From: Dictyostelium discoideum
Lineage: Eukaryota
NCBI GenBank assembly: GCA_000004695.1
Contig: CM000151.3
Coordinates: 5,824,001 to 5,888,000 of the forward strand
Direction of reading: 5' to 3'
Length of the DNA stretch: 64,000 nt
The first letter of the stretch is position 1. Every line of letters starts with the position of its first letter. Positions 57,215 to 60,075 of the stretch are shown here, one piece after another. The translations under genes were made by a program, and so were the position numbers. The notes below the pieces were generated by a model. It ran no database searches, had not been told where the DNA came from, and saw only the letters and a list, made by a program, of their open reading frames with translations.

Positions 57215-57265
<51 letters not shown>

Positions 57266-57475
57266 TTTCCAAAAATATAAAAAATTCTATTTTTAGAATT
57301 TTCATACATGTGACATAATTTCATCAAGATTCGATCGATCTTAAAATGAATTAATTTTTTTTTTTTTTTTTTATAAAAACATTAGTAACTATTTAATTTT
57401 ACCAACTTCGAGTATAATATTAAATATTTTAAAACACACAGATATCAGTTTTTAAAACAATTTTACTATCTATCT

Positions 57476-58285
57476 TTATTTTTTTTTATAAAAAAAGAAT
57501 CCCATTGTTATTTTATTGTATTTAGAACATGGTTGTCTTGAAGTTTGGTCATCTCCATCTGAGTAATAAATCCTATTTCCATTTAGTTGGCAACCACCAT
57601 TAGAATGATATTTATATTTCGTTTGTTTGAGTTCACCAACAAGTCCTATAATAAGTTTACCATCATACCTTTTTAATCCAACCAACTGATCATTGGTGTT
57701 ACTAGGAGTCAATATTTCTCTATAAAATATTTTCACATATGTTTCATAACCTTGATTATAATATTCTGAAAGATCACCCATTAAAGTAACCCAATCTCTT
57801 TCACAATTTACATACAGTTCATGTAAAACACGTCTGATTTGATCATAATCATTGAATCGATTGATAATATTACATGATTTATTTGTAGGGTGTATAACAT
57901 TGTTGTTCGTCTCCCTTAACTTTTGTTCTAAATTAATATAAGCATCAGTATCAACATCAGAAGGTTCCTCTTGGTTATTACTCTTATTGTTGTTTTTATT
58001 TTGTTCATTTAAATAATATTTATCATATAAATCCTTAATATTTGGAATTTCCATTTTCTTTTCATTATAAAAAACCTTAATTAAAGAAAATGTCAATATG
58101 GCTTGATTTTCATATATGTTATATTGAGATGGATGGTGACTCGACATAACCAAAACCTTATTTTTTTCGAAACACATAATAAATGATGGGAAACCTAAAC
58201 CTGTTTTTTTATTATAGTTTATATTATTCTCTTTGCTATTGGTCTTTCTTCAAGTTGTGATTTATCAATTGATAAACTATTAATA

Positions 58286-58371
<86 letters not shown>

Positions 58372-58994
58372 AATATTATTATTAATATTATTATTAATAT
58401 TATTATTAATATTATTATTATTATTAATATTATTATTATTAATATTATTATTTTTATTATTATTAATAATATTATTATTATTACTATTATTATTAGTAGT
58501 AGTGGTAGTAGCAGTAGCAGTAATAGAAATTTCATTAAAATGTTTAATTAGTGGTTCTATTTTATGTTCATCTGATTTTATATTTATATTCTTAAATTCT
58601 TTATTTAATTGATTCAACCATTCATCTGTTTTTTTTTTTGTTTTTGTGCAATTATCAAAATGTATTTTTAATGCTTGTAAATATTTTAAATAAAGTTATA
58701 TGTTAGTATTTTATTTTAAAATCCTTAATACTAATAATATATTTATATATATATATATATATATATATTAATATGTACAATTTATATTAATGCAATTTTT
58801 GATGGTTTTAATTTTTTCAAAATTTTCCATGAAGCTTTTATGTGTTATTAAAACTATTTTATTATATCTTCTTTATATCGAATGTTAATAATTCTTGAAA
58901 TTGTTACATTGTAATTATTTTCAAAATCATTTGATATGATATATTCTTGTACATTTAATTGTATTTTTACATCATCTTTGCTTTGTGGTACCAT
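57476..58994 (-). pseudogene. Gene of unknown function that appears disrupted. A 29-codon 5' exon at 58994..58908 (MVPQSKDDVKIQLNVQEYIISNDFENNYN|GTAACA) is followed by a poly-N exon at about 58695..58219 and then by a 233-codon 3' ORF at 58177..57476, which is out of frame with the poly-N exon by one nucleotide.
   Basis: The poly-N segment opens with a TTG in the ORF track and has no in-frame ATG, so it needs an upstream exon. However, no phase-compatible acceptor exists for the phase-0 donors of the 5' mini-exon. The poly-N frame and the downstream frame (ENNINYNKKTGLGFPSFIMCFEKNKVLV...) overlap by only about 37 nt (58256-58219), and no intron is possible between them, so a 1-nt indel is required. 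The only C-terminal sequence that looks non-repetitive is ..NCERDWVTLMGDLSEYYNQGYETYVKIFYREILTPSNTNDQLVGLKRYDGKLIIGLVGE.. Confidence 0.35.
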
Positions 58995-59439
58995 TTTATA
59001 ACACTATACAATTATTTTTATGATTGAAAAAATTTAAATCAGAAATAATTGGAAAAAAAAAAAGTTTTTATAAAAAAAAAAAAAAAAACTTTTTATTAAA
59101 AATTAAAAAAAAATAAAAAATAAATCTAATTTTTTTGTTAAATTTATAAGAAAATTTTAAAAACAATATTAAGTTATTAAAAATTAAAAATGAAAAAAAA
59201 AAAATAATATTAATTGTAGTTTTAAAATGATACTTTTGATTTCTATTTTTTTTATTTTTAAACTATTTTTAATGTTTCAAGTTGATTATTTAAATCAAAT
59301 CAATTTTTATATTATTTAGAAATTAATTTTTTAAATGTTTTATTTATTTTTTGATTTTTTGATGCACATAATTATTTTAAAAAAACATCTCAATTCTAAA
59401 AAGTTTACTAACATATTTGAATTTTTTTTTTTAAAATAA

Positions 59440-60075
59440 AAAAATAAATAAAACAATCAAAAAATTATCTCTGAAAATATAAAAATTCTTTTTTAAGAAT
59501 TTCATACATTTCACATAAAATTTCAGATTCAATTGGCCTTAAATTAATTTTTTTTTTTTTTTTTTTTTTTCTTAAAAAAATTAAAATAAGATGTTGAAAA
59601 AATGTTTTAACAACTTGAATATAATTTTAAATATTTTTAAACACAATAATTTCAGTTTTTAAAACAATATTACTATTTAATATTGGATCCCATAATTATT
59701 TTATATTTTTCAATTTGTGAAGGCAAAAAAATTCATTCTAATGGTGGTTCCATGTTCTAAAGTTTTTGGTCAACTTCATCTGAGAAATAATACTTAATTC
59801 CATTTAGTTTGGAACCACCATTAGAATGAATTTTTTTGACTTCACTTGAAAAAAGTCCTTTAATAAGTATACCATCATACCTTGTTAATCCAACCAACTG
59901 ATCATTGGTGTTTCTACATTGTATTTATTTTTAAAATCTTTTGAATTGATTCTTTCTTGTACATTTAATTTTATTTCTACATGATCTTTGATTTTTCCTG
60001 CCATTTATAATACTATATAGTTTTTTTATGATTGAAAAAATTTAATCAGAAAAAATTGCAAAAAAAAAGTTTTTT
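59440..60075 (-). pseudogene. Truncated, diverged tandem duplicate of the 57.2-59.0 kb gene. The 3' flank, the last ~50 codons and the 5' mini-exon are retained, and the whole middle is deleted.
   Basis: Segment 59445-59700 is about 75% identical to the 3' flank at 57245-57480. Segment 59720-59930 matches the gene's 3' coding end at 57520-57720 (TNDQLVGLTRYDGILIKGL..HSNGG vs TNDQLVGLKRYDGKLIIGL..HSNGG). Segment 59930-60070 matches 58930-59040, including a mutated start exon (MAGKIKDHVEIKLNVQERINSKDFKNKYN vs MVPQSKDDVKIQLNVQEYIISNDFENNYN). Stops follow shortly after each block. Confidence 0.55.

Follow-up and report, generated by a model that had tools for sequence, protein, structure and literature searches.

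Why does a short stretch of the minus strand of Dictyostelium discoideum AX4 chromosome 2 carry parts of the same gene twice, in the same order and orientation, and what has become of the two copies? The locus lies in an extremely AT-rich window of 64 kb (the whole stretch of DNA that was analysed; positions without an assembly label are those of the window). It comprises copy A at 57231-59088 and copy B at 59433-60092, both on the minus strand, with copy B as the upstream one. Within copy A, the 233-amino-acid (aa) minus-strand open reading frame (ORF) at 57476-58177 is an exact match to the hypothetical protein DDB_G0275743 (XP_643544.1, Q552Y4), and the next gene downstream encodes an immunoglobulin E-set (TIG/IPT, Tgr-like) protein; on its other side the syntenic locus is bounded by a T4-deiodinase-like gene. 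We consider it likely, at a probability of roughly 0.8, that a fast-evolving orphan gene was duplicated here, that copy B has long been dead, and that copy A was coding until recently and was lost independently in each lineage.

The locus was compared with its syntenic counterparts in three assemblies: L004 (GCA_054883475.1), an independent AX4-type assembly that is near-identical to AX4, and L005 (GCA_054859355.1) and L006 (GCA_054859385.1), which represent sister lineages. These loci were reached via a chimeric gene call that clusters DDB_G0275743 with its neighbour. In conserved neighbour genes, L005 and L006 are separated from AX4 by ~0.07-0.12 synonymous substitutions per site (dS), and L005 and L006 differ from each other by 2-6%. 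The three genomes very probably come from Holland et al. 2025 (PMC12745789), an attribution of our own, the accessions being absent from the text of that paper; that study sequenced with both Nanopore and Illumina, and it places several isolates that carry the name D. discoideum in their deposits among cryptic sister species or in the D. citrinum clade. A literature search for the gene identifier DDB_G0275743 and for the assembly accessions gave no match. Three independent read assemblies (the Logan contigs L001-L003) complete the material.

The duplicated unit and the gene model of copy A

Is the similarity between the two copies anything more than low-complexity matching of AT-rich DNA? Lenient blastn indeed yields many weak AT-rich matches throughout the window. 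Under strict blastn with DUST masking, however, exactly three collinear same-strand blocks are left (E 1e-24 to 1e-40):

A 57231-57469 with B 59433-59676, same strand: block 1, 77% identity, E 2.6e-24
A 57544-57704 with B 59765-59916, same strand: block 2, 81% identity, E 1e-30
A 58905-59088 with B 59915-60092, same strand: block 3, 84% identity, E 1.6e-40

Block-wise local alignment scores stand at z = 42-50 above shuffled sequence within these blocks and drop to z ~2 immediately outside them, so the duplicated unit is bounded. The translated matches between A and B are significant as well (tblastn E 5.5e-7 for exon 1 and E 4.5e-11 for the C-terminal block), a repeat finder reports collinear direct repeats of 83-93% identity, and both copies are also found in the sister lineages. 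Smith-Waterman scores against natural AT-rich control segments were confounded by (AAT)n repeats and are not relied on. The direct comparison of A with B by DUST-masked blastn, shuffles and tblastn thus refutes generic AT-rich matching, to which we assign a negligible probability. The same-order, same-orientation duplication described in the initial annotation is real, although what had been counted there as separate mini-exon and 5' flank blocks merges into the third block.

The homology extends beyond the coding blocks on both sides, and the following parts of copy A belong to the duplicated unit:

57231..57475, minus strand: 3' flank of copy A (block 57231-57469 with 59433-59676; z = 42)
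58995..59088, minus strand: 5' flank of copy A (block 58905-59088 with 59915-60092; homology ends beyond)

Since these 5' and 3' flanks were duplicated together with the coding blocks, the event was a duplication at the DNA level rather than a retro-copy. Over 60200-57200, AX4 and L004 differ solely in a run of ~45 A at 57218-57262, on the margin of the duplicated unit; this run is ~10 nt shorter in L004.

The duplication had also been taken for young and for part of a gene family, and neither description holds. The divergence between A and B (17-23%) is two to four times that of A from A or of B from B between lineages, which makes the duplication old, and the deletion junction of copy B is identical in all four genome assemblies. 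Nothing beyond the two copies turned up in database searches, and no further paralogue was found in the 64-kb window or in the L004-L006 loci.

What did the gene look like before it was damaged? From the syntenic loci of the three assemblies we reconstructed an ancestral gene of two exons and ~600 codons, with a 75-codon exon 1, a linker of poly-Asn and Pro/Gln-rich sequence, and ~420 residues of unique sequence. Its parts can still be recognised in copy A of AX4:

58779..58994, minus strand: exon 1, ATG 58994-58992; 216 nt in AX4, 226 nt in L005
58674..58778, minus strand: intron of 105 nt with GTACAT donor, TACTAAC branch-point motif at 58708-58702 and ACAAG acceptor, phase 1
58219..58673, minus strand: 5' part of exon 2, with poly-Asn at ~58500-58291, filler at 58285-58236 and TAA at 58221-58219
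57476..58249, minus strand: 3' part of exon 2; frame open from 58249, 233-aa coding sequence from ATG 58177 to the stop at 57478-57476

The intron signals (GTACAT donor, TACTAAC, AG acceptor) give a phase-1 intron, and a second phase-1 AG is present at 58627-58626. In L005 the equivalent splice sites remove 85 nt and reproduce exactly the deposited 600-aa product (7001-8888), in which one frame spans exon 2, the poly-Asn tract, ~230 codons that are absent from AX4 and then the ORF that we call the 3' ORF. In L006, exon 2 is open to its stop over ~533 codons. A longer continuous ORF spanning the AX4 pieces therefore exists in both sister lineages, and the 233-aa coding sequence matches the end of the ancestral ~600-codon gene, its last ~230 codons, with 69% identity to L006 (query residues 189-419).

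The mini-exon at 58994-58908 proposed in the initial annotation is an ATG exon in its own frame, as stated there, but it represents only the first 87 nt of the longer exon 1. GTAACA at 58907 does not serve as a donor: this position marks the start of the deletion in copy B, and the real intron lies at 58778-58674.

Several length differences accompany this gene model. In AX4, a (TA)n microsatellite in the intron (58745-58770) exceeds its counterparts in L005 and L006 by ~20 nt, and this accounts for an intron of 105 nt in AX4 as against 85-87 nt in the sister lineages. The poly-Asn region is unstable, with two (AAT)n tracts in L005 (7379-7800), one in L006 (7597-7800) and one interrupted tract in AX4; the two L005 tracts are parted by a duplicated 'QTPIQPN(P/Q)NQFP...TGQS' unit. 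Exon 2 of AX4 carries an in-frame segment of 84 nt at 58644-58561 (KTKKKTDEWLNQLNKEFKNINIKSDEHK), whose place is taken by just one GAT codon in L005 and L006.

Lesions in the two copies

In AX4, copy A is interrupted at two places. A four-assembly alignment places a 13-nt deletion in exon 1 between 58872 and 58871, within a short GATATAA direct-repeat context. It shifts the frame to a TAG at 58856-58854, so that translation stops at codon 46 and leaves a 46-aa ORF. In the splicing test, exon 1 ends in phase 0 in AX4 (216 nt) and in phase 1 in L005 (226 nt). The lack of a phase-compatible acceptor for the 5' exon, reported earlier, is due to this 13-nt deletion. The second lesion lies in exon 2:

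58236..58285, minus strand: deletion scar (filler) of ~50 nt, which replaces ~700 nt (L006 7725-8424; L005 7735-8428)

The scar directly follows the (AAT)n tract, and homology resumes cleanly at 58235 in a different frame, with a net loss of ~650 nt. Local alignment of the filler (58285-58236) to the sister segment is no better than that of shuffles, and no source for it was found among the sequences compared in this analysis; within it lies a perfect 16-nt palindrome, TTTATCAATTGATAAA, at 58276-58261. Because ~700 nt were replaced by ~50 nt, the poly-Asn ORF, which closes at 58219, and the 3' ORF, which opens at 58249, are in different frames, and the ATG exon is in a third.

Could a sequencing error of one nucleotide in a homopolymer have split an intact gene in AX4? 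The frames at 58219-58256 do differ as the initial annotation described, and the overlap window contains a run of seven A. The offset is nevertheless the scar of the ~650-nt net loss and not an indel of one nucleotide. L001-L003 match 58263-57350 at 100% without an indel, which covers the interval 58219-58260 for which a check of the reads had been proposed, and L004 is identical to AX4 over 60200-57270. One contig from the SRR series of L001-L003 includes the intron of a neighbouring gene, and we therefore take these contigs to be genomic DNA from a strain near AX4. The identity in independent AX4-type data excludes a sequencing error; moreover, the orthologues show the ~700 nt that are missing here, and exon 1 is separately broken by the 13-nt deletion. 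We thus give next to no weight to an intact AX4 gene that was misread.

Is AX4 the derived state at the scar? We infer a deletion in AX4 by parsimony, because the ~700-nt segment forms one continuous in-frame ORF with both of its neighbours in the sister lineages.

Copy B carries damage of a different kind. It joins the equivalent of A 58908 straight to the equivalent of A 57704, which leaves ~1.2 kb of copy A unmatched, and its parts are as follows:

59918..60092, minus strand: 5' flank and homologue of the first 87 nt of exon 1, ATG 60004-60002 (blastn, tblastn)
59885..59917, minus strand: deletion junction GTAGAAACACCAATGA..., identical in four of four assemblies
59757..59912, minus strand: homologue of the ~50 C-terminal codons, with a premature TAG at 59759-59757 (tblastn E 4.5e-11)
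59433..59676, minus strand: homologue of the 3' flank (DUST-masked blastn)
59717-59752 and 59810-59845, strand not assigned: arms of a 36-nt inverted duplication, 97% complementary, spacer of 57 nt, in AX4 copy B only

At the junction, exon 1 breaks off at codon 29 and runs on, out of frame, into the C-terminal block; the resulting ORF (60004-59885) has 39 aa. The second copy thus indeed lacks the central coding region, as had been noted, and is disabled by the out-of-frame deletion. The junction is common to all lineages, so the deletion predates their split and is old. The earlier picture of pseudogenisation caught in the act therefore fits in part: neither copy is intact in AX4, and copy A appears freshly broken, but copy B is old.

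Further damage to copy B differs between lineages. In L005 and L006, an additional deletion of ~320 nt, corresponding to ~59880-59560 of AX4, has largely removed the C-terminal block. In AX4, the arm at 59810-59845 is ancestral coding sequence, the arm at 59717-59752 is an inserted inverted copy of it, and copy A has no such pair; the arms were also seen as an inverted 17-nt blastn match. This 36-nt inverted duplication looks like a snap-back or templated insertion. Taken together, the junction signatures of the locus (2-nt microhomology, palindromic filler and the 36-nt snap-back-type insertion) point to error-prone end joining beside an unstable (AAT)n tract.

Between lineages, copy B diverges by 4.5-6.7% and the non-coding flank by 4.4-6.6%, on small numbers of sites, and all three amino-acid differences in the 39-aa ORF are replacements. 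The neutral rate, the shared junction and the secondary, lineage-specific damage fit a dead, drifting fragment, as far as sequence comparison can tell. Copy B combines duplicated flanks, a disabling lesion and a neutral rate, the marks of an unprocessed duplicated pseudogene.

Does copy B perhaps still work as an alternative first exon of copy A exon 2, joined to it through a long intron? In L006, a deposited 570-aa model (6601-9136) joins the copy B ATG exon over an 823-nt intron to exon 2 of copy A. A copy B exon of 106 nt with a phase-1 GT, spliced to the phase-1 acceptor, would indeed give an uninterrupted 570-aa ORF there, and the GT is present in all lineages. The donor, however, reads GTTGGT, and the intron would measure 823 nt in L006 and ~1.2 kb in AX4, compared with 85-105 nt for the intron of copy A; typical Dictyostelium introns are far shorter than 823 nt or ~1.2 kb. 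Moreover, the copy B exon evolves at the non-coding rate with replacements only in its 39-aa ORF, and in AX4 the product would still stop at 58219. We consider a working copy B highly improbable, and the 570-aa model is most likely an artefact of a gene caller seeking an ATG.

Evolution and probable loss of copy A

How did copy A evolve in the lineages that kept more of it? In L005 a TAT-to-TAA nonsense codon at ~8886-8888 removes the last ~92 codons, and in L006 deletions of 43 nt and 4 nt lie in exon 1, at ~7307 and ~7410. No examined lineage is free of lesions, and the intact reference is for this reason a mosaic of L005 exon 1 and L006 exon 2. The disabling lesions of copy A appear recent and private to each lineage.

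The 3' ORF differs between AX4 and L005/L006 by ~0.12 nonsynonymous substitutions per site (dN) at a dS of ~0.08, which corresponds to a dN/dS of 1.4-1.6; the conserved neighbours show 0.02-0.08 at similar dS. The differences spread evenly over the codon positions (22/24/23), and out-of-frame controls gave dN/dS values of 0.8-1.0. Placing the 69 observed substitutions at random, we expected 4.8 in-frame stops, with a probability of 0.007 for none, and none was observed. Likewise, in a plain DNA alignment, six of six indels in the 3' ORF are multiples of three (6, 6, 9, 27, 6 and 6), compared with 4 of 11 and 4 of 10 (8 of 21 together) in the adjacent 3' flank (P = 0.003). By dN/dS, constraint on the amino acids is thus apparently absent from the 3' ORF, yet its stops and indels indicate that the reading frame was kept.

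With copy B as outgroup, 11 coding changes at ~160 sites could be assigned to lineages, a single one to AX4 and 10 to the sister lineage (binomial p = 0.012), while the non-coding flank is symmetric (4-6 on AX4, 3-4 on the sister lineage). The coding rate of the sister lineage exceeds its flank rate (Fisher p = 0.006-0.011); on the AX4 lineage, 1 change in ~160 sites compares with the flank at p = 0.26-0.65, too few events to separate the two. In the segment that is absent from AX4, L005 and L006 differ by 13 replacement and 0 silent changes. The simplest reading of these patterns is a translated gene under very weak or positive selection, clearest in the lineage that is nearly whole.

Could the gene in AX4 have been split into two working genes instead of lost? 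A spliced poly-Asn protein from ATG 58830 and the 233-aa protein from ATG 58177 might be expressed separately and be functional. Both ORFs have an ATG and both have been called as genes (DDB_G0275743 and a 152-aa model in L004); the ATG at 58830 (58828-58830), from which the poly-Asn ORF can be spliced, was created by an AX4-specific Ile-to-Met change, and the 3' ORF is free of stop codons. However, the AX4 lineage accounts for only 1 of the 11 polarised changes, and with so few changes the frame would be expected to stay open even in the absence of selection. Furthermore, the N-terminal half of the unique region is missing from the 233-aa ORF, which on any transcript from the original promoter would lie behind the 46-aa upstream ORF and the poly-Asn ORF. 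A search of the literature turned up no mention of the gene, and the Logan contigs are genomic DNA. We regard such a fission as improbable and take the AX4 pieces of copy A to be probably non-functional.

Another possibility is that positive or diversifying selection acts on copy A across the D. discoideum species complex and that the gene has been repeatedly knocked out, the pattern of a gene involved in conflict. The basis for this would be protein change at no less than the silent rate with the frame kept, an acceleration confined to the nearly intact lineage, and the 13 replacement and 0 silent changes between the two sister isolates. If this were true, social cheating, self/non-self recognition and interaction with symbionts or pathogens would be examples of such conflict. 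The dN/dS above 1 is not significant by itself (Fisher p = 0.25), and for this reason we do not claim positive selection; we hold this possibility to be a doubtful one.

We thus return to recent and repeated loss of copy A beside a long-dead copy B. A two-exon orphan gene of ~600 codons would have undergone a tandem duplication that also took in ~95 nt of its 5' flank and ~245 nt of its 3' flank. Copy B would soon have lost the region from codon 29 to the last ~50 codons by an out-of-frame deletion, have drifted since as dead DNA and have gained different secondary lesions in different lineages. Copy A would have stayed translated, with a protein sequence that changed rapidly. In the AX4 lineage, it would then have suffered the 13-nt exon-1 deletion and the replacement of ~700 nt of exon 2 by the ~50-nt filler near (AAT)n; in the sister lineages, one would have acquired the nonsense codon and the other the 43-nt and 4-nt exon-1 deletions. 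The ancestral frame would survive in AX4 as disconnected pieces, of which the 233-aa DDB_G0275743 would be the C-terminal remnant.

Several points weigh against this account. The excess of replacement changes lacks significance when taken alone, as given above, and the polarisation rests on ~160 sites. For the ~700-nt segment, it is parsimony that favours a deletion in AX4 over an insertion in the sisters. As the sister assemblies combine Nanopore and Illumina data, an assembly error might account for the 4-nt deletion in L006, although this is unlikely for the 43-nt deletion in L006 and for the nonsense substitution in L005. Finally, the AX4 pieces could still be expressed, as the spliced poly-Asn ORF from ATG 58830 and the 233-aa ORF with its own ATG.

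An orphan protein, known parallels and the neighbouring gene

Does the protein belong to any known family? Searched against Pfam, the three pieces from AX4 gave nothing credible, and the 469-aa region of L006 matched no family at E <= 1. Neither the AX4 ORF nor the protein of L006 found a homologue in a word-indexed search of 5.8 billion clusters, and a full HMMER search of 1.84 billion representatives found no credible homologue outside the D. discoideum clade; the sister orthologues are absent from both collections, whose coverage thus stops short of very recent genomes. Two HMMER matches were judged spurious, as these giant proteins carry 7 and 14 near-identical repeats over which the scores were summed. 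A sequence search of the PDB returned only a chance match to an unrelated protein (E 0.15). AlphaFold2 on the AX4 ORF alone gave a mean predicted local distance difference test score (pLDDT) of 33.9 and an unusable model. The idea of a uracil-DNA glycosylase, raised by 'GIVMINP' and 'HHPS' in the sister protein, was dropped, as the Pfam and PDB searches gave it no support. As far as can be seen from sequence searches, the gene of copy A would be an orphan confined to D. discoideum and the sister lineages nearest to it.

The database records themselves complicate such searches. KAM9945766.1 (1036 aa; L004 10001-14191, equivalent to ~58057-53842 of the window, minus strand) is a chimera of the 3' ORF and the E-set gene; consequently, an unrelated E-set protein stands as representative of the 90% cluster that contains DDB_G0275743, and searches miss the match of the protein to itself. 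The chimeric model and the mis-clustering together conceal the protein from searches of clustered databases. The annotation calls for a further correction: the entry DDB_G0275743 (Q552Y4) covers just the C-terminal third of a larger gene, and in the AX4/AX2 laboratory lineage this gene is broken. Work on the function or expression of DDB_G0275743 in AX4 therefore deals with a remnant.

How unusual is this locus? An unprocessed pseudogene beside a parent that is broken in a lineage-specific way is ordinary in kind. Unprocessed pseudogenes from tandem duplication such as the tgrB/C fragments are likewise local copies that keep flanks and exon-intron layout, and they share the deletions and frameshifts, the partial fragment and the differing decay in related isolates. 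The protein described here, in contrast, has no TIG/IPT or any other recognisable domain and exists in only two copies, and its locus is on chromosome 2, beside a single syntenic E-set gene and not at the chromosome-3 tgrBC hotspot. In AX4, the tgr fragments comprise tgrB2, tgrC2-C5 and 26 tgr pseudogenes (PMC12745789).

Copy A also resembles unitary-type pseudogenes and cases of recurrent independent inactivation in its conserved orthologous position and its different lesion in each lineage; unlike in those cases, no examined lineage has a lesion-free copy. With the fast-evolving orphan genes of D. discoideum that contain Asn tracts it shares the variable poly-Asn, a dN/dS near or above 1 and the absence of homologues beyond the clade; it differs in that preservation of the frame can be demonstrated while the gene is lost in parallel. 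Asn/Gln tracts in D. discoideum are reportedly a subject of the 2005 genome paper by Eichinger et al., which PMC12745789 lists as its ref. 32. Lineage-specific dictyostelid genes are treated, at least in part, in PMC8535579.

One locus thus provides a small example of gene birth and death, in which a long-dead copy, a recently broken one and almost complete orthologues with private lesions can be seen side by side. If the signal of fast evolution holds in more isolates, it would also be a candidate for a locus related to conflict.

A tRNA scan of the 64-kb window found none. The neighbouring E-set/TIG (Tgr-like) gene at 53842-56640 on the minus strand has a dN/dS of 0.5-0.6 relative to the sister lineages, which is fast for a syntenic single-copy gene. 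Copy A therefore adjoins a fast-evolving Tgr-like E-set surface protein, a point that we name in connection with a possible role in conflict.

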